Shown here in pieces: positions 1-46,479 of a DNA stretch of 64,000 nt (position 1 is the stretch's first letter; every line of letters begins with the position of its first letter). This DNA comes from a virus. Position numbers and translations under genes: made by a program. The stretch lies in the IMG/VR virus record IMGVR_UViG_3300000117_000011, positions 1 to 64,000 of that record; one strand, written 5' to 3'. The notes beneath the pieces are model-generated. The model was given only the letters and a program-made list of their open reading frames with translations, was not told the origin of the DNA and did no database searches.

Positions 1-54
1 TATTGTTTACACGAAGCGAGACGACGCCACGAAGCCACCACCACCCGAAACACC

Positions 55-804
55 TTAGAAGTCTAAGTTGTCCTCATCGTCCATGAGATCCTCAATGTCG
101 CCCATCATATCCTCGTCGCCATCCTCAGCCCAAGCTGAACCACCATCGTCACCAGGATTCAGTTCGTAACCGCTGAGCTCTAAAACTTCTTCTTCCTCAA
201 CCTCAAAGAACGCGTCAGCCTCTGGTACGTCAACGATCTTGTCGAGACTATGCGTTGGAACTGATGACCCGCCAACAGGAGCTTCATCATCTACGTTGCG
301 GGTCGTCGCGACCTCTTCAAGCTTCATCGCGTGGGGAGTCGAGTTAAGAGCCTCGATCTTGTCGTCTAGTAAATGGACTGGAACGTAGTGAAGCTGTTTA
401 GGATGATCGATAGTAGATCCAGCTGTTCGAACCTCGAAGGCCGCACAATTACTTCCATTCGCGACGCGAGGACCTGCGAAGCGAATCCAAGCGAAGCCGG
501 CTGTCTGAATCCAACCTGTGTATTCAGCTGCGTCATCGAATCCTTCGAGAGTCGGGATGATATCATCAACTGCGACCTTAACCCATTTCGCTCCTCGACC
601 TGAGAAACGAGCCTTCACCTCGCTACGCCAATCATTGACGAGGCCAGTCTTCGCCGAACGACCACAAAGCGGTTTAACAAAAACACTGACCAGATCGTCA
701 AGATGACGTTTAAAGGCCGTCACTTTAGGCTCACCACCTTCTTCGATAAAGTTGTTGAACAGTCCCATGATCATATCATCATCATATTGTTTTTGGTTTT
801 CCAT
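55..804 (-). CDS. hypothetical early protein with long acidic C-terminal tail
   Basis: ORF track 55..840. The second ATG (804) has the RBS AAGGAG 5 nt upstream, whereas the 840 ATG is only 5 nt from a -10 box. C-terminus is D/E-rich. Confidence 0.75.
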   Translation of the reverse strand: MENQKQYDDDMIMGLFNNFIEEGGEPKVTAFKRHLDDLVSVFVKPLCGRSAKTGLVNDWRSEVKARFSGRGAKWVKVAVDDIIPTLEGFDDAAEYTGWIQTAGFAWIRFAGPRVANGSNCAAFEVRTAGSTIDHPKQLHYVPVHLLDDKIEALNSTPHAMKLEEVATTRNVDDEAPVGGSSVPTHSLDKIVDVPEADAFFEVEEEEVLELSGYELNPGDDGGSAWAEDGDEDMMGDIEDLMDDEDNLDF

Positions 805-845
805 GTTGTCTCCTTGAATGTTTGATTGAATGTTTTCCATGGTTT

Positions 846-875
846 ATTATAATCCTTTGTTTTATTAGTTACACG
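846..875 (-). promoter_or_regulatory. early promoter copy 1 (CGTGTAA-N17-TATAAT)
   Basis: Minus strand reads cGTGTAA ctaataaaacaaaggat TATAAT; same motif and spacing in four copies. Confidence 0.8.
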
Positions 876-899
876 TTTTGAGTTAAGTTTGATTCCTTG

Positions 900-977
900 T
901 TATCTGTAATACCAGATCGCGAAGGGAATCGCCAAGAATGTTGAGCCAAGAATGAGCGGGATTAAGTCGTAGATCAT
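900..977 (-). CDS. 25-aa hydrophobic peptide (MIYDLIPLILGSTFLAIPFAIWYYR)
   Basis: Hand-translated. TAAGGAGGA RBS just upstream of the ATG, own promoter, one TM-like stretch; below the ORF-track cutoff. Confidence 0.7.
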   Translation of the reverse strand: MIYDLIPLILGSTFLAIPFAIWYYR

Positions 978-995
978 TTGTCCTCCTTATGGTTT

Positions 996-1025
996 ATTAT
1001 ATCTTTACTTTAGATGAGTTACACG
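996..1025 (-). promoter_or_regulatory. early promoter copy 2
   Basis: cGTGTAA ctcatctaaagtaaaga TATAAT. Confidence 0.8.
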
Positions 1026-1048
1026 TTTCGGGTTGACGAGGTGAGAGG

Positions 1049-1105
1049 TTATAACCATAAGACAAATGCGGTAAGAGAAAGAAAGGTTATTAAGTCGGGA
1101 ATCAT
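1049..1105 (-). CDS. 18-aa hydrophobic peptide (MIPDLITFLSLTAFVLWL; alternative start 1117)
   Basis: Hand-translated. GGAGG RBS before both ATGs, own promoter, N-terminus MIxDLI shared with the 900-977 peptide. Confidence 0.6.
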   Translation of the reverse strand: MIPDLITFLSLTAFVLWL

Positions 1106-1162
1106 ATAAGCCTCCATGAGACCTCCGTGATTGAATGATTGATCGTTTGTCCTTACATCTGT

Positions 1163-1192
1163 ATTATAGACTAAGGAATTGAGTTTTACACG
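1163..1192 (-). promoter_or_regulatory. early promoter copy 3
   Basis: cGTGTAA aactcaattccttagtc TATAAT. Confidence 0.8.
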
Positions 1193-1365
1193 TATTACGT
1201 CCTTTTCAGCCGAATCATCTCACATCGCAGTCCTCGTGTATCTTGACCGCTTCATCAGCTGGAGTTTCCTAGTTTTCAAAGATCTGGAGTCGGAATCCCG
1301 AGGTCGGTTGCCATCCCTTCCTCATCGTCCTTAGGAACCGCCGTTCCTATCCCTCCTTATGTTTT

Positions 1366-1395
1366 ATTATACTCCACATCGTGGAAAGATACACG
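1366..1395 (-). promoter_or_regulatory. early promoter copy 4
   Basis: cGTGTAT ctttccacgatgtggag TATAAT. Confidence 0.75.
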
Positions 1396-1399
1396 ACGA

Positions 1400-1605
1400 T
1401 GGCTAAAAGCCCCGGGGCTCTAAAGGGCCCCTAAAAGGGCCCCCTACAGAGGGCCTAAAACTCAGTGATACACGCCGGGCTAGGGGGTTTAGTCGTCTAC
1501 CCGAATTTTCTTCGCGCAACTTTTTCAAAAAGTATTAGGGTACACATCTGAATACACCAAGATGTGCTTAAGCACGCATCTGAATATATCGAGTATAAAT
1601 AGAGG
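1400..1605. other. non-coding strand/composition switch with GGGCCC repeats, palindromes and direct repeats
   Basis: GCCCCGGGGC, tandem AAAGGGCCCC units, palindrome GTGCTTAAGCAC (1564-1575), direct repeat CATCTGAATA (1545-1554, 1577-1586); genes diverge from here. Confidence 0.6.
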
Positions 1606-1657
1606 AGTGTATATATGAAAGTTTGCGGCGCTTATTTCAAATAGTATTTTCAGCTTT

Positions 1658-1705
1658 TTGTGCGAAAAACTTCGAGAGAAATTTTGGAAAACTTTTTAAT
1701 AATTA
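1658..1705 (+). repeat. upstream repeat family P, copy 1
   Basis: AAAAACTTCGRGAGA..TTTT.GAAAACTTTT core shared with 2687-2750 and 3554-3613. Confidence 0.8.
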
Positions 1706-1731
1706 GTGTATAAGTGTATAAAGAGGTTGAC

Positions 1732-1896
1732 ATGATATTATTAGAAAGTTACATAAGAAGTGTTTTATTCGAAAGAGGCAGGTTTAGTAGTGGGAGTGGA
1801 TTAGATGCTTATTTAATTGGTTTGGATTGTGAAGCCAAAGAACTTTTAGGATTAGTTAAAAAAATTAAAGAAAGTAATAGTGTGCTGAAAGTGTGA
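1732..1896 (+). CDS. small protein with Glu-terminated leader (MILLESYIRSVLFE)
   Basis: GAGGT RBS before the ATG at 1732; leader resembles those of downstream genes. Confidence 0.6.
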   Translation: MILLESYIRSVLFERGRFSSGSGLDAYLIGLDCEAKELLGLVKKIKESNSVLKV

Positions 1897-2495
1897 ATAA
1901 TCGTTTTGGCTATTTACAAATCTTTGAAAAGAAAAAAGAAATAATTGATATTGTAAAAAAAGAATTAGGGGAAGAGTTTGTTGATGATTTAGGTATTGAG
2001 TTTAATGATGATTTGCCTGTTGTGGTGAGAATAATCCAGGGTGACAATACTTCTAAAGAAAAATCAGGCAAATTAAATTTACAAGATAACTTAGATTGGA
2101 TGGTTCATGATACTTGGCATTTAATTGTTGATAGAAGTTTTTGGATTAGGGAATTTTTAAGTAAAAGTGTGCATATTAGTCAAACGCTGGAATATTATAT
2201 TGATAATAGTATTTTAGTAAATGGTAGTCGTACTGATTTTGAAAAAGATTGTTTAATGTTTTTGAGAAATTATAATTTTACATCTGGAGTAGGTGAATTT
2301 GATTGTGTGCCAAGTTTAGCAGCTTTTTGTGTTATGAACAAAGAAGTAAAAAGTGTGCCTGTTGAGTTTAAAGGAAAAATGAAAAATTATGAAGACTTTA
2401 ATGAGTTTTACATTAGATTACATGTTATGAGTCCTTTATTGTGGAAGTCTATATTTAAGAGTTTAAAAGGTAAGTTGATTTTTAATCATTTTTAA
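1893..2495 (+). CDS. hypothetical protein
   Basis: 200-aa ORF with GTGA overlap; may be the frameshifted continuation of 1732-1896. Confidence 0.65.
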   Translation: MNNRFGYLQIFEKKKEIIDIVKKELGEEFVDDLGIEFNDDLPVVVRIIQGDNTSKEKSGKLNLQDNLDWMVHDTWHLIVDRSFWIREFLSKSVHISQTLEYYIDNSILVNGSRTDFEKDCLMFLRNYNFTSGVGEFDCVPSLAAFCVMNKEVKSVPVEFKGKMKNYEDFNEFYIRLHVMSPLLWKSIFKSLKGKLIFNHF

Positions 2496-2505
2496 TGTAT
2501 TTTTT

Positions 2506-2539
2506 GACGAGCTGGGTGTCTCTTGAGTCACAGACGTAA
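2506..2539 (+). repeat. downstream repeat family T, copy 1
   Basis: GAGCTGGGTGTCTCTTGAGTCACAGACGTAA; related copies at 3477-3510 and 4779-4804. Confidence 0.8.
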
Positions 2540-2686
2540 TAGGATAAACTTGAACGCACAAATATATTATATTTTTTTATATTTGTGCACAAATCTCTAA
2601 CTATCTCTAGAGAAACGGGTATTGAATGGGGCATTTGCATTGAATCCCCTAAATAGTTTCCAGTATGCAAAACAGTTTTGCTGAAA

Positions 2687-2750
2687 TTGTGCAAAAACTT
2701 CGGGAGACTTTTTCGAAAACTTTTACATTTCCAGAGATAAATAGATTTAT
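2687..2750 (+). repeat. upstream repeat family P, copy 2
   Basis: AAAAACTTCGGGAGA...GAAAACTTTTACATTT...ATAAATAGATTTAT. Confidence 0.85.
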
Positions 2751-2778
2751 AGAATATTTTCAAAGTAAGGTTTTAAAT

Positions 2779-3471
2779 ATGAGAGTGACTGAGAGCAAGT
2801 TAAGAAGGATAATTCGCCAAGTAATAAAAGAAAGTGCTGGTGGATCATATAATTGGTATTCTGATTGGGTGGAAGCAACAGAAAAAATTAAAAAAAGAAG
2901 TTTATCAAAGATTTCATATGAATGTTTAAACGACTTTGGTATTTCTCGTGTTGATGCAAACAGTAACGACAGTATTGTATATAATTTAACTAAATTTCAA
3001 GATAGAGGAATTTCTGAGGGTGAATTAACATCTATCCTTTCTAACATATCAAGCGTACATGCTGCAGATGCTGATGAGATGTCAAGACTTCATTTAATGT
3101 TTACAGCGACTGTTGGGTTGCTAATAGAAAATGGAAAGATAAAAGTTAATTTTGGTGCTAAAGACAAAAATGCATTAAAACAAATGAAACCTGGAGAGAT
3201 GGCGATTGTTGCTGCGATTTCAACATCTGGAAGTGATAGGTTACAATCTTGTTTAATATATGAAAAGCCAAGCAATCATTCACTTCCTGACAGGAGTAAT
3301 TATTTTGTAATTGCACAAAATCCTCATAATCACAAGGTATTTGATAGAGAAGAGGCTGGTAATATAAGAAGGTATAACGAAAAACAGCAAGCTGATTATT
3401 TAGAGCGAAGGGAAAAAGCCGAGAAAAAAAGAAAAGACGAAGAGCTTCCTTGGTACGAATATACTAGATAA
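2779..3471 (+). CDS. putative internal head protein, leader MRVTESKLRRIIRQVIKE
   Basis: Start reassigned to the ATG at 2779 because the leader matches the 3641 gene and the upstream extension runs through repeat P. Confidence 0.7.
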   Translation: MRVTESKLRRIIRQVIKESAGGSYNWYSDWVEATEKIKKRSLSKISYECLNDFGISRVDANSNDSIVYNLTKFQDRGISEGELTSILSNISSVHAADADEMSRLHLMFTATVGLLIENGKIKVNFGAKDKNALKQMKPGEMAIVAAISTSGSDRLQSCLIYEKPSNHSLPDRSNYFVIAQNPHNHKVFDREEAGNIRRYNEKQQADYLERREKAEKKRKDEELPWYEYTR

Positions 3472-3476
3472 TCTTT

Positions 3477-3510
3477 GTCGAGCTGGGCATCTCTAGCGTC
3501 ACAGACGTAA
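3477..3510 (+). repeat. downstream repeat family T, copy 2
   Basis: GAGCTGGGCATCTCTAGCGTCACAGACGTAA, immediately after a stop codon. Confidence 0.8.
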
Positions 3511-3553
3511 CAGAATAGTTTTAAGTTTGTGAAAGTATTTTACTGGGTTTGAT

Positions 3554-3613
3554 GAAAAAACTTCGGGAGAAATTTTGAAAACTTTTTACATTTTCAGTTA
3601 TAAATAGATTTAT
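3554..3613 (+). repeat. upstream repeat family P, copy 3
   Basis: AAAAAACTTCGGGAGAAATTTTGAAAACTTTTTACATTTT...ATAAATAGATTTAT. Confidence 0.85.
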
Positions 3614-3640
3614 ATGATGTTTTTTAAAGAAAGATTAAAT

Positions 3641-3955
3641 ATGAGAATAACTGAGAGTAGATTGAGAAGAGTGATTCGTCAAGTGATTAGCGAAAACATG
3701 CCTTACGACGAGCCTGATGAGTATATGGGTTATGGGTCGTATGGTGAAGTTGAAGATAGTGATGTTAGTCTTAAAGAGCTAGAGAATATGCTAATGTCAC
3801 ATAGCTATGAAGCCCAAAGAGCTGATGGTTATGGTGAAGTAATGCATGCGAAAGGTGAGTATGAGCTTGGTGTTATGAGTAAAGACGAGTACATGAATTT
3901 GCTTAGGCCTTTTATAAATGACGTAATTGAGCAAAGTGGAAGATCTAGTTTTTAA
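3641..3955 (+). CDS. putative internal head protein, leader MRITESRLRRVIRQVISE, acidic body
   Basis: Leader nearly identical to that of the 2779 gene; bodies unrelated. Confidence 0.7.
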   Translation: MRITESRLRRVIRQVISENMPYDEPDEYMGYGSYGEVEDSDVSLKELENMLMSHSYEAQRADGYGEVMHAKGEYELGVMSKDEYMNLLRPFINDVIEQSGRSSF

Positions 3956-3977
3956 TTATTATAAAGTGTAAATACAA

Positions 3978-4703
3978 ATGAGAAGAAAAGACACAGCGCT
4001 ATTAATAGAAGAGTGGAAACAATTTAACAGTGAAGAAGAGTTAATTTATAACACAAAGCTACTGTTAGAAAAAAATGAAAATTTCGACAAGCAAGTTTTA
4101 AAAGAAAGTTTTGCAGGAAAAATGACTGATTGGTTGCAGTCTGGATTTGACATTGTAGGATTTATTCCCGGGATAGGCGAAGGATTTGATGCGATAAATG
4201 CTATAATATCTTTATCTCGAGGCAGACCTTTCGAAGCTTTGTGCTCAATTATATCATTATTCCCAGGTGTAGGTGATGTTATTGGTAAGGGCGGAAAATA
4301 TTTGGTTAAATATTTAGGACCAGAGTTAGATGATATTATTCAGGGTAAGATTTCAAGCCCAAGTGACTTAAGTGAAAACTCAATTTTAAAAAAAGAATTT
4401 CTTTTATTAGAGGCTAACAAAGGAGATGGAAAAATGTTTAAATTAGTTGTTAAAGCAATTTCAAAAACCAAAAACAGGTGGTTTCCTTTTATTAAAAACT
4501 TATTAAAAAGTGTAGAAAAAAACAAAGATTCAGTTGAACTGGTTAATGCAATAGAAGATAGTGAAATCAAGCTACCTAAAATTCCTGAAAAATTTAAGGA
4601 AAAAATTGGAGATATAATAAAGAAAAAAATAACAAACCCAAGTGACATTATGAAAAAAATTACTAATCTTGTTAATTTTATTGATAATTGTGCTAAAGAA
4701 TAA
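3978..4703 (+). CDS. protein with pre-toxin TG (PT-TG)-like helical domain after a LLIEEW leader
   Basis: DIVGFIPGIGEGFDAINAIISL...IISLFPGVGDVIGKGGK matches the PT-TG/polymorphic-toxin linker pattern. Confidence 0.65.
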   Translation: MRRKDTALLIEEWKQFNSEEELIYNTKLLLEKNENFDKQVLKESFAGKMTDWLQSGFDIVGFIPGIGEGFDAINAIISLSRGRPFEALCSIISLFPGVGDVIGKGGKYLVKYLGPELDDIIQGKISSPSDLSENSILKKEFLLLEANKGDGKMFKLVVKAISKTKNRWFPFIKNLLKSVEKNKDSVELVNAIEDSEIKLPKIPEKFKEKIGDIIKKKITNPSDIMKKITNLVNFIDNCAKE

Positions 4704-4778
4704 AATATTTTTATACTTTTATTAATAAGTAGATTTATTTAATATCTATTAAAGAAAGTGACTTATAGAATTGGGTGT

Positions 4779-4804
4779 GCTGGGTATCTCTAGTGTCACG
4801 ACGT
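4779..4804 (+). repeat. downstream repeat family T, copy 3 (degenerate)
   Basis: GCTGGGTATCTCTAGTGTCACGACGT. Confidence 0.7.
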
Positions 4805-4880
4805 TTATATAAGTTTAATCTTATGTGCGAAAATATATATATTATTAAGCGTATGAATAAGATTAAACAGGGGTCATAAT

Positions 4881-5663
4881 ATGAATCGTAAAGAATATAA
4901 ATTATTGGTTGAAGGATGGAATGGTTATTTGAACGAAATTTCATCTGATATAAGTGGTGTAACAAAGATTAAATCATTTGTTGATAGAATAGTTGCTTTA
5001 CGTGAAGAGACAGGGAAAGATATTAAGATTAGGGCACGATTAAACGGTACTGTACTAGAAGTTAATTTATTAAACTACTCAGTCTTAAGAATGAATGGTG
5101 TATTTTATCAAAAAGCTTGGCTTAATCATCTTGGAAATGTAGATAGAGAAGTAAAAGTTGATGGAACCCGCGATCCTTACGTAATAAAATATTCAGACGT
5201 AGGTGGAGGATTTGGGCCTTTACTTTATGAGATAGGATTAGAGATTGTTAGTTGTAACTTAGGTGGTGCATTAATGAGTGATAGAGGTGAAGTATCTGAG
5301 GAAGCTGAAAGTGTTTGGGATCGCTATCTTAGTCGATCTAAATCTGAGTTCAATCTTGAAGCTGTTAAGATGGATTTTTCTGATGAGTCTTGGGACGATG
5401 TAATGTATGATGCACCCTTTGCAGATATGTCAGACGAAGAGCAGGAAAGATTTAAACAGACACAAAAGTACACTCCAGATGATGCTTCTGATGACATATA
5501 TCAATATTCAGCTATTTTAAATTCAGCAAAAAAAGGTAATTTTGTTGATGGTGATTGGAAAAATTTTGAAAGCCCTTTAGCATATGCATATTATAAATTA
5601 GAGCCTGAAGTATTGACATACATTGAAAGTTTAGAAGAAAACATACTTGAGATAGACATTTAA
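4881..5663 (+). CDS. GNAT-like protein with YKLLVEGW leader (paralog of 9266-9955)
   Basis: GGGFGPLLYE...LMSDRGEVSEEAESVWDRY resembles a GNAT motif A/B-like core. Confidence 0.55.
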   Translation: MNRKEYKLLVEGWNGYLNEISSDISGVTKIKSFVDRIVALREETGKDIKIRARLNGTVLEVNLLNYSVLRMNGVFYQKAWLNHLGNVDREVKVDGTRDPYVIKYSDVGGGFGPLLYEIGLEIVSCNLGGALMSDRGEVSEEAESVWDRYLSRSKSEFNLEAVKMDFSDESWDDVMYDAPFADMSDEEQERFKQTQKYTPDDASDDIYQYSAILNSAKKGNFVDGDWKNFESPLAYAYYKLEPEVLTYIESLEENILEIDI

Positions 5664-5806
5664 ACTTGTTTGTTTAGTTCGTTAACTGTTTTTAATATAT
5701 TCTGAATTTCATCTTCGTCAAAACATTCTCTATTAACAGCTTCTTGCAGTGTTCTAATTAAAATATTGATACATACTAATTGTTTGTGATTTATTAAATA
5801 ATTCAT
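5660..5806 (-). CDS. 48-aa helical hypothetical protein (MNYLINHKQLVCINILIRTLQEAVNRECFDEDEIQNILKTVNELNKQV)
   Basis: Hand-translated; fills the intergenic gap; TATAAT just upstream. Confidence 0.55.
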   Translation of the reverse strand: MNYLINHKQLVCINILIRTLQEAVNRECFDEDEIQNILKTVNELNKQV

Positions 5807-5847
5807 GATAATTATAGTATGATAAGATTAGAAAGTTTACAATTAAC

Positions 5848-6105
5848 ATGAAAAAGACAGTAAAATATATTGCAATTTGCTTAACTTTCTTTTTAGTATC
5901 TGTAACTTCATGTTCAGAGAAAAAAGAAGACATTAAATTGCCTAGAACAGAGTGTGAGCAGATAAAAGACATTGTTACAGATTGTTTAGGGTTATATCGA
6001 GGTGCTTTAGGATATATAAAAAGTTGTGGTAATATATCTTTGTCTGAAATTAAATCTCTTGCAAGCTGTGAAGAAATATTTGAGTATATAGAAAACAAGG
6101 ATTAA
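5848..6105 (+). CDS. Cys-rich lipoprotein
   Basis: Basic N-terminus, hydrophobic stretch, VTS-C lipobox, four further Cys. Confidence 0.65.
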   Translation: MKKTVKYIAICLTFFLVSVTSCSEKKEDIKLPRTECEQIKDIVTDCLGLYRGALGYIKSCGNISLSEIKSLASCEEIFEYIENKD

Positions 6106-6107
6106 TA

Positions 6108-7589
6108 ATGAAAAGGCAAGAATATAAGTTGTTAGTAGAAAACTGGAATACTTTTTTAGTTAAAGAAGAAGAAAACTATAGTTTAATTGAGCAAAATATA
6201 AATAGCAATGCTGAGTTGTTGTATCTTTTAGAGTGGGGTGATAAACTTGAAAGATTAATCGTAGAAAGTGGTAACTATTTACTATTAGAAAGCTTACATG
6301 AATCAAATAGTTTTCTTGGAAAACTAATTAGATTAAAAGATAAAGTTAAAAGTTCATTTAAAGTTAGAAAAGATGCTATAGATGGTGAAGGCAACAAAGT
6401 CAAGTACGATGATAGCGAAGAAAGTCAAGTAAAACAAGAGTATACTAAGCTTGCTAAAGCAGGCATGTCAGCGATGGCTGCAATTAAAATTGCAACTATC
6501 ATTATGACAGCTTTGACTCCAAATAGCTTAGCAGCTGGCAGCGCGCCAAAGAATTTTCAAGAACTTCCTCCCGGTGTTCAACAACTAATTTCTGCTGAAA
6601 CGAAAATACCTGCTAAAGATTTGACTAGAATTCAATCTATGGAATTTAATGATTTTCATATAGGGCCTAGAACGCAAAATTTAGAGTTCGATGCAAAGAA
6701 AATAGGACCAAGTGAAGAGTTTAAAGCAGAATTAGCATTAGCTGCTGCGAAGAACGTTGCAGACGAACCAGAAAAAGTAAAAAAAGAAACAGCTTTAGAA
6801 CTTCTTGATAAGTTAGGTTTGAAAGGAGGCTTACCAGATGACTTTGAAAAAGGTTCTGCTGAAGGTCGTGCAACATCATTAGGTATAGATACATCAGGTC
6901 CAGTTACAGTATTGAATTCTTTTGAATCTTCAGAAGAAGCAGACATGGAACTAGCTAATAATATTGTCAAGCTCATGGCAAGTCAAACAGACTTAGGTAA
7001 AACAGATGTTAAGACATATGATTATTCACCGACACAAGATGAATTCAAGCAATCTTTAAATAATTTTAAAAGTCTAGACAAGTCAACTAAAATAAAGCTT
7101 TTGAGAGCTGCAAAACTTAAAGCAATAAAGGATTTAATGGAAAAGCATCCTAAGATTTTTGATAAAGCAAAGTCATGGACGAGTACTATTTGGGGATTTG
7201 AAGGAGAGGGTGCAGGAAAAGATGTTTCTGATATGGGACATCATAAAGCGGAAGGTTCTAAAGAAGCTAGAGTTTTGAGCTCGTTATATGGTGCTTTTAC
7301 TGATGATGACTTTGATTTTAGCGAAGTAAAAACATTTCAAGATCTTGAAAAAGTTATTGATGGTCATAATAGTTTTGCTCAAGTTACAGGTGACAACTCT
7401 CTTGCAGATGATGTAAAAGGATCAATTGTTACTTATGTATTGAAAAACTGTACAGACGCAGGTTTAGAAGATCTTGAATCTAATTTAAGTGGAGTAAAAC
7501 ACATTGATCAAGACTTAGAAAAGATTACAGATGCAGCAACTACTTTTAAAATTAGCGGAACTCAAGATTCTTATACAAAACTTAGGTAA
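6108..7589 (+). CDS. putative internal virion/ejection protein, YKLLVENW leader
   Basis: Shared leader, several (L/I)xE sites, one hydrophobic segment (AMAAIKIATIIMTAL). Confidence 0.6.
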   Translation: MKRQEYKLLVENWNTFLVKEEENYSLIEQNINSNAELLYLLEWGDKLERLIVESGNYLLLESLHESNSFLGKLIRLKDKVKSSFKVRKDAIDGEGNKVKYDDSEESQVKQEYTKLAKAGMSAMAAIKIATIIMTALTPNSLAAGSAPKNFQELPPGVQQLISAETKIPAKDLTRIQSMEFNDFHIGPRTQNLEFDAKKIGPSEEFKAELALAAAKNVADEPEKVKKETALELLDKLGLKGGLPDDFEKGSAEGRATSLGIDTSGPVTVLNSFESSEEADMELANNIVKLMASQTDLGKTDVKTYDYSPTQDEFKQSLNNFKSLDKSTKIKLLRAAKLKAIKDLMEKHPKIFDKAKSWTSTIWGFEGEGAGKDVSDMGHHKAEGSKEARVLSSLYGAFTDDDFDFSEVKTFQDLEKVIDGHNSFAQVTGDNSLADDVKGSIVTYVLKNCTDAGLEDLESNLSGVKHIDQDLEKITDAATTFKISGTQDSYTKLR

Positions 7590-7607
7590 TAAGTTTAAAC
7601 TCAAATA

Positions 7608-8900
7608 CTAGACAAATAAATGTTTATAAACTCTTTTAAGAGATTCATTGCTGCTTTTATCTTGAAAATTTTTCGGTGTAATAGATATTCTTATTTCTTC
7701 AATGCCTGTTTTAATTAGTTCATAATTTTTTTGAGGTCTGCCGCTTCTTTCTAAATCACTATGATATTTTGTTTTACCTCTTACTGTACCATCATCATTA
7801 AAGTTGTACAATATTTCTTCAGCAGCAATTTCAAATAAATTAATAGCAACTTCAACTTCTTCTTCGCTTAAGTCTTCGCTGTCTAAGACTATAGCTGCGT
7901 GACGCATTGTTTCGTTAAAGTTTTTAAACTTATCTAAAAATCCCGGGCCCATATTGTAAGCCATGTCATAAAAAGCTTGCTTTGTATCTTCAGGAAGTAC
8001 TTTAAAATATTTTACTTTGTTCATTTCATCAATTACGTGAGCAACTTCTTTATCTGCAGCGAGACCTGCTTGATCTAAGTTTATAGGATCAGTACTTGAT
8101 GCATTATCATCTTGAATTGAATAAGTAGTAAAAAACTTTTCACGCCATCCCGGGAGTGTTTTTTCTATCCACTCGGCTTTACTTACACCTTTTTTACTTT
8201 GTTCTTTGAAATCTTTTTCTAATTCTTCATGTTCACCTTCATCAAGATCTGAAGTAGAAAAAGCTTTTGTTCCATGACCAACACTCCATTGATGGTGGTC
8301 TAGATATGGTAGTCCTCTAAAACCTTCGTGACTAAGAATACTTTGTTTAACTTTTTCTTTGTCAATACTTGAGTCGTATTCTATAGAGAATTTAAGATCT
8401 TCACTTTCACTTTTGTTTTTAATTTCGCTAAATGTTTTTTCAATTTTGCTTTTTTCTTCTGGATTTTGTTTGATTAGAGCATCTTTAACTGCATCTTCAG
8501 TTTTTTCTTGTTGAGCAGAGTACGTTTGACCACTACCTTGACTGCTCCCAGGAAATTTAACATGATCAGGTATACAGTTCCAAAGAGCTACAATCATTCC
8601 AAGCGTTACCAATCCTCTTGACGCATAACTTTTAAGACTATTGTACTTTGGTTCTATTGCAGTTAATGCTTTAAATTCTTTGCTTTGTTCGTCAGGTGTA
8701 TCTTTATCTACATAAACATTTTCTTTTCCTACAGGTCTTAAGCCAGTCTGAACATATTTTTCAGGGTCAGATCCTGGTGGATGAGAAGAAACTGGTGTTA
8801 AATTAACATACCTTTTTGAGCTGTCGTCTTCTATTCCTGATTCTATTAAGAATTTTTTTATTAAATAGTGATTTTTTTTATTTTCTGCTATAATAATCAT
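7608..8900 (-). CDS. phage lysozyme (GH24-like) domain protein, likely virion-associated
   Basis: ILSHEGFRGLPYLD..WSVGHG and AFYDMAYNMG..FLDKFKNF motifs; long N-terminal extension with a hydrophobic segment. Confidence 0.8.
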   Translation of the reverse strand: MIIIAENKKNHYLIKKFLIESGIEDDSSKRYVNLTPVSSHPPGSDPEKYVQTGLRPVGKENVYVDKDTPDEQSKEFKALTAIEPKYNSLKSYASRGLVTLGMIVALWNCIPDHVKFPGSSQGSGQTYSAQQEKTEDAVKDALIKQNPEEKSKIEKTFSEIKNKSESEDLKFSIEYDSSIDKEKVKQSILSHEGFRGLPYLDHHQWSVGHGTKAFSTSDLDEGEHEELEKDFKEQSKKGVSKAEWIEKTLPGWREKFFTTYSIQDDNASSTDPINLDQAGLAADKEVAHVIDEMNKVKYFKVLPEDTKQAFYDMAYNMGPGFLDKFKNFNETMRHAAIVLDSEDLSEEEVEVAINLFEIAAEEILYNFNDDGTVRGKTKYHSDLERSGRPQKNYELIKTGIEEIRISITPKNFQDKSSNESLKRVYKHLFV

Positions 8901-8945
8901 ACAATACCTTTGATTTTATATTTAAGTATAATTATGAGAGACAAA

Positions 8946-9239
8946 ATGAATAATGACGATTTATATATAATTCAGTCAGATGTAACTGGAATGATAAAAA
9001 TAGGTAGATCTAAAAACCCAGAAAAAAGACTGAAACAGCTTCAAACTGGTAATCCAAATAAGTTAAAATTAATAGCTTCTTTTAAAGGAGAAGGATGGAA
9101 AGAAAAGAATATTCATGAAAGATTAAAAAGATATCGTCTTGAAGGTGAATGGTTTAGTTACGATTGCATAGGAAGCATTCCTGATAATCATTATGAACAA
9201 ATATCTTTTGGCTCATTTGATGACTGGTGGGATAATTAA
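8946..9239 (+). CDS. GIY-YIG superfamily (T5orf172/MUG113-like) protein
   Basis: LYIIQ..IKIGRSKNPEKRLKQLQTGNP...EKNIH...RLEGEWF. Confidence 0.85.
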   Translation: MNNDDLYIIQSDVTGMIKIGRSKNPEKRLKQLQTGNPNKLKLIASFKGEGWKEKNIHERLKRYRLEGEWFSYDCIGSIPDNHYEQISFGSFDDWWDN

Positions 9240-9265
9240 TTTAATAGATACTTAAAGGGAAAAAA

Positions 9266-9955
9266 ATGAATACAAAAGATTATTTTTATCTGTTTAATGA
9301 GTGGAAACGTTTTTTAGTTAAAGAAGACAACAATATCTTAAATATCGATAGTCAAATTCAAAAAGCAATAAAAAAAACAAGTGAGCTTAATAGACAAAAA
9401 TTAAAAATAGACATCCTAAAAGAAGGAAACGAGTATACTTTAATCGCAAACTTTGTAGACGAAAGCAATGAAAATCATATTATAGAGGAAATAGCAGATA
9501 TATCATTTAGAAAATTCCCGTACAGTCAAGTAAAAGATCAGAAAGGAATTGAAAGAAATGCTTATATAATCGAGCGCACTAAAATTGTCAAGTATGACTT
9601 AGGGCCTTTAATGTATGATTTAATAATTGAATTTGTCTCAGGTGACAATTCTGTATTGTGTCCTGATAGATTTGAAATTTCTAGTGAGGCTCAAAACTTA
9701 TGGTTAAATTATTTTAATAAAAGACCCGAAGTGAAAACTGTCCAGCTTGATATCGAAAATGATAGTTTAGATGACAAAGAATTTCCAAACTTAACGCCAG
9801 ATTGGCGAGATGATTTTTATCAAAATGTATCAATAGAAGATAAAGGTAAAGAGTGGTTTAACAGTCCTTTTTCAAAAGGATACTACAAAGATAATAGTTA
9901 CGTTATTAATCAATTAAATCTTAATAATGATATCTTTATTTTAAATATAAAATAA
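9266..9955 (+). CDS. GNAT-like protein with LFNEWKRFLVKE leader (paralog of 4881-5663)
   Basis: LGPLMYD...LCPDRFEISSEAQNLWLNY...TPD..DD.YQ...SP....YYK aligns with the 4881 gene. Confidence 0.55.
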   Translation: MNTKDYFYLFNEWKRFLVKEDNNILNIDSQIQKAIKKTSELNRQKLKIDILKEGNEYTLIANFVDESNENHIIEEIADISFRKFPYSQVKDQKGIERNAYIIERTKIVKYDLGPLMYDLIIEFVSGDNSVLCPDRFEISSEAQNLWLNYFNKRPEVKTVQLDIENDSLDDKEFPNLTPDWRDDFYQNVSIEDKGKEWFNSPFSKGYYKDNSYVINQLNLNNDIFILNIK

Positions 9956-9972
9956 ACTAACAAGGCTTAACT

Positions 9973-10896
9973 ATGAAAGATTTTTTTCTGGAAGAAATTA
10001 AAAAAAGTGGTGGATATTCTTGTTACCATGCACATTTTGACAAAGCTTATTTGATAACTCCTGAAATATTTGAAAAATGCCAATCATCGCTTCAGGAAAA
10101 ATGGAAGCTGTACAGAGGATTTAAAATAAATTACACAAAAGAAACACTTTTAAACAGAATGTCAAAATGTATAGTTAACATGATTAATCAGGACGTGAAA
10201 TATGTCAGAACTTTTGTTGATGCTGATAGTATTGTTGAACAAAAATGTATTGATGCTGCTTTGTGTTTAAAAGAAATTTATAGAGACGAGATAAAAATAG
10301 ATATAGCAATACAACCTCTTGAAGGGTTAGAAAAAACAAAAAGTAAAGAAAACTTTCTAGAAGCTTGCATGAAATCTGATTTTATTGGCGGTCTTCCAGA
10401 CCGAGATTCTTCACCAGATAATCATTTAGATTTGTTGTTTGGTTTAGCAAAAAGTCTTAATAAACCTGTTGACATACACGTTGGTCAAAACAATATCCCG
10501 TCTGAAAAAGAAACAGAGCTTGTGTTGGACAAAATAGAAGAACACAAACTTAAACAAAAAGTTAGTTTAGTTCACTGTATTTCACTTTCTTGTCAAGATG
10601 AGAGCTATATAAGACACCAGGCAAATCGTATGCAGCAATTAAACGTTGATGTGATAGTTTGTCCAAGCGCAGCAATAAGTATGAAGCAGAATCATTCTGT
10701 ATACTCTCCTGTTCATAATTCAATAGCACCTGTCAAGATACTTTTAGAAGAAGGTGTCAATGTTAAATTAGGTATAGACAACATTGAAGATTTATTTATG
10801 CCTTTAGTAGACGGTGACATGTGGTTTGAAACAAGATTGTTAATGGAGGCAACAAGAATTTATGATTTGAAAAAAATACTAAATATAGTAACCTAG
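9973..10896 (+). CDS. metal-dependent amidohydrolase, cytosine deaminase (CodA)-like
   Basis: HAHFDK, VRTFVD, IGGLP, DIHVGQ, VHCISL and LGIDN in CodA-family order. Confidence 0.85.
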   Translation: MKDFFLEEIKKSGGYSCYHAHFDKAYLITPEIFEKCQSSLQEKWKLYRGFKINYTKETLLNRMSKCIVNMINQDVKYVRTFVDADSIVEQKCIDAALCLKEIYRDEIKIDIAIQPLEGLEKTKSKENFLEACMKSDFIGGLPDRDSSPDNHLDLLFGLAKSLNKPVDIHVGQNNIPSEKETELVLDKIEEHKLKQKVSLVHCISLSCQDESYIRHQANRMQQLNVDVIVCPSAAISMKQNHSVYSPVHNSIAPVKILLEEGVNVKLGIDNIEDLFMPLVDGDMWFETRLLMEATRIYDLKKILNIVT

Positions 10897-17779: not shown

Positions 17780-19096
17780 ATGCACGAAAATTCAAGAAAA
17801 ACTTTTGTAATAGATACTAGTGTTTTATTATATGACATGAATTCTCTTTTTAATATGAGTGGAAATGATATAGTAATACCTCTAGTTGTTCTCGAAGAGT
17901 TAGATAAGTTTAAAACCCGAGAGGGTTTGTTAGGTGAATATGCCAGATTTTTTAATAGATTTTTTGATGAACTAAGAAAGCTAGGAAGTCTTAACAAAGG
18001 AATATGGTATGAAGACTCAGATATTAATATCGTTGTATCTTCTAGTTATTATTGGGATAATATAGATTCTTTAGATAAAAGTACAAACGATAATAAAATA
18101 ATAGCATGCGCTAATTTAGCAAAAAGATACAATCCTTATACAGAAGTTATTGTTATAACTAAAGACATAAATCTTAGAGTAAAATGTGATGCTGTCGGAA
18201 TACTATCTAATGATTATTACGCAGATTATGAATTCATTCAAAAAGATAATCTTTACAAAGGATACGAAGAAATAATTACTTCACATGATATTATAAATTC
18301 AGTTTATACCAATAAAAAACTTTTAATAGACAAAATCCCTGAAATTGAAAAAAACAACGTTTTATTGACTGAAAATCAATTTGCTGTTCTTAGAACAGAT
18401 TACAATAATCAATCATGTCTTTCTGTTAAAAAAGGTGAATATATTTGCTTAGTCGAAAAAAATTCTAAGCTAGGAATAGAACCTAAAAATAAAGAGCAAA
18501 CTTTTGCTTTAGATCTTTTAATGGATGATAAAATATCACTTGTTTCATTGACAGGTATTCCTGGAAGCGGTAAAACTTATTTAGCTTTGATGACTGCACT
18601 TAAATTTATTGAAATGGAAAAAAAGAAAAGAATTATATTTACCAGACCAATTCAGACTGTCGGTAAAGATATAGGATTTCTGCCTGGTGACATAAGCGAA
18701 AAAATGTCGCCTTGGTTAGCGCCTATTGTTGATAATTTTAGGAATCAATTTGGTGATTTAACTTATTTTGAAATGATGATTGAAAAAGGTCAAATAGATG
18801 TTGCACCTTTATCACATATTAGAGGAAGAAGTTTTAACGACGCGATAATTATAGTTGACGAAGCTCAAAATGCAACTGTGCACGAGCTCAAAACAGTGAT
18901 TACAAGAACTGGTAAAAACTCAAAAATAATACTTTTAGGTGATATTGAGCAAGTTGATTTGCCTTATATTAATAAATTTTCTAATGGATTAACAATAATT
19001 GTTGAAAAATTAAAAAATGAAAAAATAACAGGACACGTTAATTTTGAAAAAGGCTATAGATCAGAACTTGCTAATATCGCTGCAAAAATAATATAA
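17780..19096 (+). CDS. phoH: PIN-PhoH (PhoH2/YlaK-like) protein
   Basis: VIDTSVLL...VLEELD...NDNKI...TKDINLR PIN domain; GIPGSGKT, GFLPGD, RGRSF, DEAQN, GDIEQ. Confidence 0.92.
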   Translation: MHENSRKTFVIDTSVLLYDMNSLFNMSGNDIVIPLVVLEELDKFKTREGLLGEYARFFNRFFDELRKLGSLNKGIWYEDSDINIVVSSSYYWDNIDSLDKSTNDNKIIACANLAKRYNPYTEVIVITKDINLRVKCDAVGILSNDYYADYEFIQKDNLYKGYEEIITSHDIINSVYTNKKLLIDKIPEIEKNNVLLTENQFAVLRTDYNNQSCLSVKKGEYICLVEKNSKLGIEPKNKEQTFALDLLMDDKISLVSLTGIPGSGKTYLALMTALKFIEMEKKKRIIFTRPIQTVGKDIGFLPGDISEKMSPWLAPIVDNFRNQFGDLTYFEMMIEKGQIDVAPLSHIRGRSFNDAIIIVDEAQNATVHELKTVITRTGKNSKIILLGDIEQVDLPYINKFSNGLTIIVEKLKNEKITGHVNFEKGYRSELANIAAKII

Positions 19097-45966: not shown

Positions 45967-46479
45967 ATGACAAAAGAAAATTTTTTAAACTCTGGAAAAA
46001 AAGAAGCTGATGTGATATTAGAAAATGCTCAGCAAAATAGTCAACTTAATTCTTTCGATATACCAATAGGAATAAGACTTCCTTTGTCTAAAGGGAAAAA
46101 ATCAAAAGAGTCATTGTTTGAAATGAATTTTGAAATAGAAAAACAAATTTCCAATAATTTTAAAGTTTTTTTATCAACTAAAAAAGGCGAATTATTGTGT
46201 AATCCTGAATTTGGACTACCAATATTCACCTTATACAACAAGACTAATTTATCTTTAGAAGATATAGAAAATATAGTTATGAAAGAAATAAAAGAAGGAA
46301 CAAGTAAATACTTTCCTAGTATAGAACTCGAAGATTTTGAAAGCGTCCTAGATCCTTTAAAAAATAATGATGTGCCTGATTTACTTAAGATACGTATAGG
46401 TTATAGACTAAAGCTTGGAAGTCTTGAGTCCTCAAGGACAAAGCATATAGTTGAACTAGATATTAAAAGGTCAATATAA
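45967..46479 (+). CDS. baseplate wedge gp25-like protein
   Basis: QISNNFKVFLSTKKGELLCNPEFG motif. Confidence 0.85.
   Translation: MTKENFLNSGKKEADVILENAQQNSQLNSFDIPIGIRLPLSKGKKSKESLFEMNFEIEKQISNNFKVFLSTKKGELLCNPEFGLPIFTLYNKTNLSLEDIENIVMKEIKEGTSKYFPSIELEDFESVLDPLKNNDVPDLLKIRIGYRLKLGSLESSRTKHIVELDIKRSI

Follow-up and report, generated by a model that had tools for sequence, protein, structure and literature searches.

Introduction

Two described systems come closest to the locus examined here. The hyperplastic regions of the T4-type phages RB49/phi1, PST/T4 and nt-1/KVP40 contain small composite terminator/promoter motifs, the promoter early stem-loop elements (PeSLs); PeSL recombination leads to indels, replacements and possibly mini-circles, and the authors who described it likened the cassettes to integrons (PMC2839356, PMC4122927). 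The internal proteins found in T-even phages form a diverse set with only a targeting sequence in common (PMC3012670). The first 10 residues of one of them, IPIII, form a capsid targeting sequence that suffices to load foreign proteins into the head, and the T4 protease gp21 cleaves after L/I-X-E (PMC9026906). Here we describe an array of gene cassettes at positions 1618-4880 of a 64,000-nucleotide (nt) stretch of viral DNA, called the window throughout. The window is the first 64 kilobases (kb) of the 95-kb IMG/VR contig IMGVR_UViG_3300000117_000011, which is estimated to represent 38% of a complete genome.

We conclude, with a probability of about 0.7, that the array is a hyperplastic cargo locus of a distant T4-type marine myovirus, in which genes for capsid-targeted proteins are shuffled by homologous recombination at repeated joints. 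The locus thus probably combines the shuffling seen at PeSLs with the logic of the T-even internal proteins, using a different joint.

Results

A repeated joint separates the cassettes

The array is built around two short repeats, the P box and the T box. The P box core, AAAAACTTCGRGAGA, is found with 0 mismatches at 1665, 2693 and 3556. Exact copies of the T box core, GCTGGGYRTCTCTWGNGTCAC, lie at 2511, 3482 and 4779; for this pattern, shuffled sequences lead one to expect 0.00 matches. There are just three T cores in the window, and the same three in the whole 95-kb contig; the P box is likewise confined to this locus. An earlier reading of the window made from its letters alone, the original prediction, had placed all six copies correctly. 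It had also treated P and T as separate repeats, a view that we revise: they are two blocks of one joint, and the gap from a T box to the following P box is 49-59 nt in 43 of 55 pairs.

Alignment of 43 T-to-P units revealed a conserved joint of ~230 nt with a block-wise conservation profile. Its order is T box, spacer, P box, NATAAATA box, ribosome site and ~18 leader codons. The T box, ~35 nt long, lies directly 3' of a stop codon and is followed by a spacer of ~55 nt (..GTTTGCGGCACTTATTT..AGTATTTT..). In the 3' half, the P box is followed by TTTTGGAAAACTTTTT, then by gATAAATAGAtTTATAT, a AAAGAAAGAG-type ribosome site and the ATG with its leader. The joints are directly repeated, 75-90% alike, and hold exact stretches of 15-35 nt. 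Stop codons mostly lie 4-23 nt 5' of the T core, so that the genes between joints, which we call payloads, fill exactly the space from leader to T box.

There is also a second, P-less joint type (type II), in which a T box ending in GACGTTTAT is separated from the ATG by ~100 nt. The motif TGTGCGAAAA at 4824, which had been taken for a P-like remnant, belongs together with T3 to a joint of this type in front of the gene at 4881. The idea that the P-less joint is a derivative of the P-bearing one was dropped, as the alignment offered in its support was not convincing.

All array features in the window lie on the + strand. The array opens with a left-end joint that has no T box (1618-1731) and consists of a spacer (GCGGCGCTTATTT..AGTATTTT), P box 1 (core 1665-1679), a TATAA-like box and a ribosome site. 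It fits the joint consensus from the spacer onward, and the conserved left flank stops at ~1556-1591. The cassette 1 payload (1732-2495; family F30, MxLLExY-type leader) had been read as more than one open reading frame (ORF). It is a single gene of 258 amino acids (aa) split by a 1-nt frameshift: the pieces at 1732-1896 and 1893-2495 align to residues 1-50 and 63-253 of intact 258-aa relatives, the frameshift falls in the A run at 1888-1890, and an extra A is present after 1887 in runs X2, X5 and X6, which come from three other samples. Either the assembly is in error here or the gene was recently inactivated by mutation.

Behind T box 1 (2502-2538; core 2511-2531, tail AGACGTAA) there is an unusually long spacer (2539-2680), with an AT-rich 11-bp hairpin (2556-2566/2578-2588) and a partial T core, TATCTCTAGAG, at 2602-2612. 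The gap from T1 to P2 is 161 nt versus the usual 49-59 nt, and in other samples T1 precedes the canonical spacer (joint 2539->1618, with loose ends); the long spacer is probably what remains of an older joint or cassette. Comparable long spacers, with a CATCTGAATAYATCGA-like motif, follow T boxes in other contigs, and two copies of the motif stand at 1542-1593, immediately to the left of the array.

The P box 2 region (2681-2778; core 2693-2707, GATAAATAGATTTATA box at 2736-2752, ribosome site) leads into the cassette 2 payload (2779-3471), a 230-aa member of family F21 whose leader, MRVTESKLRRIIRQVIKE, is encoded by the first 18 codons (2779-2832). After T box 2 (3473-3509; core 3482-3502) come the canonical spacer and P box 3 (3510-3640; core 3556-3570, TATAAATAGATTTATA box at 3599-3614, ribosome site), and then the cassette 3a payload (3641-3955; 104 aa, family F10, leader MRITESRLRRVIRQVISE). 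The cassette 3b payload (3978-4703; 241 aa, MRRKDTALLIEEW-type leader) lacks its own joint. Cassette 3 thus holds two leader-bearing genes, and the earlier reading of it needs one addition. This is a decayed 3' half of a joint at 4703-4758, with a T-rich stretch, a TAATAAGTAGATTTAT box and a AAAGAAAG ribosome site, 77% identical to 3578-3633 and with no gene behind it. Placed directly before T3, it is, to judge from its sequence, the scar of a lost payload. T box 3 and its type II joint (4770-4880; core 4779-4799, tail GACGTTTAT) close the array. The gene behind them (4881-5663; 260 aa, MNRKEYKLLVEGW-type leader) is the first conserved gene past the variable array, with a protein 85-91% identical in three relatives; a search for related loci with this protein returned three contigs that were already known and no others.

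Payloads are unrelated beyond their leaders

From the P box through ATAAATAGATTTAT and the ribosome site to codon 18 of the ORFs at 2779 and 3641, the P2 and P3 regions are ~77% alike. There the similarity ends abruptly, just as had been proposed for cassettes 2 and 3. Past the leader the payload proteins are unrelated (BLASTP E > 0.5), with sizes from 54 to >300 aa.

This bears on the possibility that the array arose by tandem birth and death of paralogues, in which one gene was duplicated with its flanks, the payloads diverged, and relatives now differ by differential loss rather than by exchange. A joint and leader common to all cassettes are what duplication predicts, empty and decayed cassettes are indeed present, and most payloads are ORFans. 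Payloads spanning such a range of sizes have no detectable similarity to one another, however, in agreement with the prediction that they are not simply paralogues diverged along their full length.

The payloads of the window and the neighbouring genes had no Pfam or PHROG matches. Across the arrays of ~60 contigs, the payload pool comprises 35 recurring families and 36 singletons, almost all of them ORFans. The cassette 3b payload (3978-4703) is one of the singletons, with no homologue in the loci fetched. Pfam matches were obtained for 3 of 84 representative leader-bearing payloads, to AAA_33 (kinase-like), NUDIX and baeRF_family5; these, if packaged, would be enzymatic cargo. Atlas lookups for two payloads gave a low-confidence model (template-modelling value, TM, ~0.35) and a weak PT-TG lead for cassette 3b (score 0.84), and neither was used.

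Some cassettes in related loci are empty, with a P box followed by a T box and no gene, or hold leader-only mini-ORFs of 31-37 aa. They occur in L005 (oriented, 2921-3072), L033 (358-502), L079 (714-918) and L021 (1575-1803), and also in L061, and they look like footprints of payload loss.

Relatives carry different cassettes between conserved flanks

Relatives were collected by exact-pattern scans with the T and P cores, which yielded viral contigs and ~60 marine metagenome contigs of low G+C (GC) content; after removal of duplicates, cassette maps were drawn for ~55 non-redundant loci. In viral contigs the T and P motifs always lie on one strand and alternate, and the recurring order is P, payload, T. 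Matches to the T pattern in high-GC soil and other metagenomes were T-only and due to chance, and were excluded, as was L015, an unrelated phage with chance matches to the P box. A DNA search of a phage collection with window 1400-8000 found no match.

The flanks of the array are conserved and its contents are not. In L016, L017 and L018, the left flank (282-1558) and the right flank (from 4779, at T3) are 80-92% conserved. Between them lie 3.2 kb in the window versus 5.3, 2.5 and 1.4 kb in these three relatives, made up of different cassettes, so that relatives do not show a fixed gene content here. Homology to L007/L018 and to L011/L016 begins exactly at 4779. L059 and L028 differ by exactly one cassette.

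Individual cassettes also move as units. Cassette 2, from P box to T box (2693-3508), is 91% identical to a cassette that occupies another array position in L006/L017. The 229/230-aa F21 payload is followed by the 104-aa F10 payload in the window, L010 and L027, whereas in L017 the order is F10...F21; F10 homologues have joints with or without a P box ahead of them and 5-6 different neighbours. More generally, among the 21 payload families whose neighbours were seen more than once, 19 have at least two distinct left neighbours and 17 at least two distinct right neighbours. The reordering of the F21 and F10 payloads among new neighbours bears out the payload swaps between conserved P and T repeats that had been anticipated. 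Differential loss from a tandem family cannot by itself give the opposite order of F21 and F10 together with a different neighbour almost every time. Nor does it fit with the F21 cassette of the window, which is 88% identical to its counterpart in L010 although the adjoining backbone gene is just 72-74% identical.

The breaks in homology fall where exchange at the joints would put them. Distinct break ends inside the arrays lie in joints in 67% of cases, versus the 28% of array bases that joints occupy, the counts being of non-independent events. They cluster at the edges of the T box, in the P box and at the end of the leader.

Because repeated joints are also places where assemblers can go wrong, co-occurring strains might have been joined there, and most of the apparent shuffling would then be chimeric. 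Our loci all come from contigs assembled from short metagenomic reads, breaks in Logan contigs occur at joints, and the joints contain exact stretches of 15-35 nt. Such exact repeats are nevertheless shorter than the k-mers typical of final assembly. Moreover, L081 and L031, which are separate metagenome records, share an identical arrangement at 99.1% identity over 7.2 kb including two cassettes, and the diverged L027 has the same arrangement as the window from cassette 2 to 3a, keeping the F21-F10 adjacency at 81% identity. The decayed remnants and leader-only cassettes, finally, are features of the sequence itself and not joins. We consider it highly improbable that chimeric assembly accounts for most of the shuffling.

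Joints are naturally fused in other samples

We also compared window 1-10000 with contigs from four DNA runs belonging to four studies; since these are assembled contigs, rare forms and circles are beyond judgement. One contig, found in runs X5 and X6 from two studies, has T2 fused to T3 (3488->4786, with 8 shared letters), and cassette 3 is absent; the crossover of this fusion lies inside the T box 2 core. In one contig from run X2, P2 is fused to P3 (2692->3555) and cassette 2 is absent. Both fusions are of the kind expected from swaps at the repeats.

A further contig from X2, the best-covered run, differs from the window at 1 position in 1048 nt over cassette 1 (99.9% identity). In the same contig, T1 is followed by a canonical spacer and P box and then by content unlike that of the window, before the sequence rejoins the window at T3. 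Together, these contigs and the fusions imply that near-identical backbones carry different cassette sets. A 99.9% identical cassette 1 preceding different content in another sample is again hard to reconcile with the birth and death of tandem paralogues, which, all told, we hold to be a most improbable account of the array.

T4-type head genes and the leader peptides

The contig is low in GC, and the proteins encoded in the window include a helicase, a PIN-PhoH protein, tail-fibre and baseplate proteins and glycosyltransferases. The rest of the contig contains a T4-type head module, with a terminase, a portal, a Peptidase_S77 (gp21-type) protease, an acidic scaffold-like protein and a Gp23-type capsid protein. 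The stretch from portal to capsid protein (L122:3622-11344, contig 83622-91344) also encodes several small proteins; the scaffold-like protein is 529 aa long and the capsid protein 622 aa. The protease matches PF03420 (Peptidase_S77) at L122:4451-5053 with an E-value of 1e-29, and the capsid protein matches PF07068 at L122:9476-11344 with 7e-79. The capsid protein has <=50% identity to that of any deposited phage; its nearest relatives are those of an uncultured 484-kb phage, of Flavobacterium and Microcystis phages and of Rhodothermus RM378.

The leaders of the payloads are amphipathic, ~18 codons long, and end in the gp21 cleavage motif [LIVFM]-x-E. They fall into three classes, represented by 113 (A), 32 (B) and 10 (C) unique sequences. 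Class A has the form MRITESrLRriIRsVI.E; 91 of the 113 sequences have the E of [LIVFM]xE as residue 18, and 18 more have it as residue 14. In class B, MnRKEykLLVE.Wr.fLnE, the E is at residue 11 in 30 of 32, and class C reads MKLLErYIkEvL.e. Leader-like N-termini are also present on two small proteins of the head module (L122:5427-5855 and 5938-6228). Because the leaders end in the cleavage motif of the contig's own gp21-type protease, it is plausible that the leader is a packaging tag, and that this protease would cleave it off.

The joint may also determine when a payload is expressed. TATAAATA is the late promoter of T4-type phages, and the conserved joint box, gATAAATAGA, fits it. TATAAATA itself lies 21 nt before the ATG of the capsid gene, and the gene at 45967 is preceded by TTATAAATATTTATA. 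Since the joint box fits the late promoter and the same box precedes the capsid gene, late expression from the joint is plausible.

The T box is conserved and has no detectable fold

The T box proved harder to place. Single copies fold no better than shuffled sequences, and no consensus RNA structure was found in 121 unique T boxes, or in 43 whole joints on either strand. A terminator scan detected no terminator-like site at the T boxes, where neither a hairpin nor a U tract was seen, and Rfam gave no credible family in 1300-5000. As folding of the T box, the P box and the whole joint revealed no RNA structure, the idea that the T box is a terminator was dropped.

The 121 unique copies do, however, share a GC-rich pattern of invariant positions beside variable ones, and the pattern is confined to the arrays; both observations argue for sequence-specific recognition by some factor. 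The T box is ~35 nt long, nearly invariant, without a hairpin, specific to arrays and mostly 4-23 nt past a stop codon, and on these grounds it could be the recognition site of a dedicated phage factor (a nuclease, a recombinase or a terminator/processing factor) that defines the boundaries of cassettes. We regard this as doubtful; if true, it would mean that marine T4-type phages possess a protein-guided system for the exchange of cargo genes.

Stated more broadly, the T box, possibly together with the P box, would be recognized by a dedicated nuclease, recombinase or homing-type enzyme, and the locus would be truly integron-like. This would be in keeping with the T-box pattern and its lack of RNA structure, with homology tracts that begin and stop at the edges of the T box, and with the one natural fusion whose crossover lies inside the T core. 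Break ends are also found in the P box and leader, however, which argues against a single fixed site, and there is a P2/P3 fusion too. As to the enzyme, no tyrosine or serine recombinase, integrase or resolvase (PF00589, PF00239) was found in the 95-kb contig, a search limited to 38% of the genome; the absence of a recombinase that had been reported for the window thus extends to the whole contig. A small protein of the MUG113/T5orf172 type, a member of the GIY-YIG superfamily, is encoded 4 kb downstream of the array (window 8934-9239; 101 aa; PF13455, 1.4e-13) and is kept in relatives. Its sequence makes it a candidate nuclease, but its gene is part of the conserved backbone and has no specific link to arrays. 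A dedicated enzyme is, moreover, not required: repeats that are 75-90% alike and an Mre11-Rad50-type nuclease suffice for homologous exchange, as in PeSLs (PMC2839356). On balance we think protein-guided exchange unlikely.

A nuclease of that type is encoded on the contig. A single 1042-aa protein (L121:12181-15309, contig 76181-79309) contains an Mre11-like phosphoesterase part and a Rad50/SbcC-like ATPase part. It resembles a fused form of the T4 gp47/gp46 recombination nuclease. The contig also encodes a PD-(D/E)XK nuclease.

Other features near the array

Three further features of the window lie outside the array. The small protein encoded at 5848-6105, between leader-bearing backbone genes, is conserved, with homologues in L005, L016-L018 and L010; it is ~80 aa long, its N-terminus resembles that of a signal peptide or lipoprotein (..SCSEK..), and its cysteines are conserved too. 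The PIN domain and the PhoH-like ATPase are combined in one protein, encoded at 17780-19096 (PF13638 and PF02562). Lastly, the leftward gene 55-840 has an indel polymorphism: where the window has 100 nt (201-302; joint 201->302), contigs of three other samples have 16 different letters. The affected region encodes the acidic C-terminal part of the protein.

Discussion

The model that we favor is one in which phage homologous recombination acts on the joints. Crossing over would take place between non-allelic joints, either within a genome or between co-infecting relatives, and each joint-to-joint crossover would delete, duplicate, reorder or exchange whole cassettes. A gene that landed between leader and T box would in a single step come under late expression and acquire an N-terminal propeptide. 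The propeptide would target the protein to the prohead core and be removed there by the gp21-type protease, leaving the payload packed in the capsid to be delivered with the DNA. Promoter activity, packaging and cleavage, like any specific role of the T box, are steps that we infer.

Several points weigh against this model. Homologous recombination covers the shuffling of existing cassettes and not the first entry of a new gene. As a passive process it also leaves unexplained the strong block-wise conservation of the T box across its 121 unique copies. The recombinase search covered 38% of the genome, and a dedicated recombinase could be encoded elsewhere. All the relatives are metagenome assemblies, and some of the neighbour changes could be chimeric joins. 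As for the promoter, NATAAATA is short and the genome AT-rich, and the best scores of a sigma-70 scan in the joints, 9/12 at 2728-2755 and 3591-3618, are no higher than those in shuffled sequences.

If shuffling of tagged genes by homologous recombination is correct, it extends the modular shuffling of the PeSL type to a distant T4-type lineage, with a joint in which regulatory signals are accompanied by a protein tag. If the leader does target the capsid, this locus and its relatives would represent a large natural library of proteins injected by abundant uncultured marine phages. The internal proteins of T4 include anti-restriction and host-takeover factors, and a search for new counter-defence proteins could therefore be focused on this library. 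In practice, the T box and P box together provide a sequence handle with which cargo genes can be retrieved from metagenomes.

How, then, does the locus compare with the systems already known? The integron-like logic of the original prediction holds as an analogy only. Like an integron, the array consists of ordered single-gene cassettes with unrelated contents, a repeated 3' element, and a content that varies between relatives. Unlike an integron, it comes with no IntI or other site-specific recombinase in the 95 kb of the contig (38% of the genome), and its T box is not an imperfect palindrome and forms no attC-like hairpin. Each cassette here has its own promoter-like box, ribosome site and leader, whereas integron cassettes rely on one common promoter (Pc).

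The likeness to the T-even internal proteins (IPI, IPII, IPIII and Alt) lies in the products. In both cases, unrelated small proteins share an N-terminal propeptide ending in the gp21 motif, a gp21-type protease and a gp23-type capsid protein are encoded in the same genome, and the set of cargo varies between relatives. The leaders here are longer, with ~18 residues (MRITESRLRRIIRxVIxE), or 11-19 in the two other classes, compared with 10 in T4, and in sequence they do not resemble the T4 targeting sequence. The pool of predicted cargo is also far larger.

The PeSLs provide the closest parallel to the arrangement of the locus. Both are repeated intergenic regulatory modules in a hyperplastic region, immediately upstream of ORFans and, in the present case, between conserved flanks; in both, recombination between copies explains the indels and replacements seen among relatives, and no integrase is involved. 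The present joints differ in having no stem-loop and no clear sigma-70 promoter. They are longer, at ~230 nt, with a late-type NATAAATA box and a GC-rich, non-hairpin T box, and they are found at one locus in 95 kb, in contrast to the ~50 PeSL copies spread genome-wide. Above all, the present joint reaches ~18 codons into the gene, and it therefore transfers a protein tag as well.

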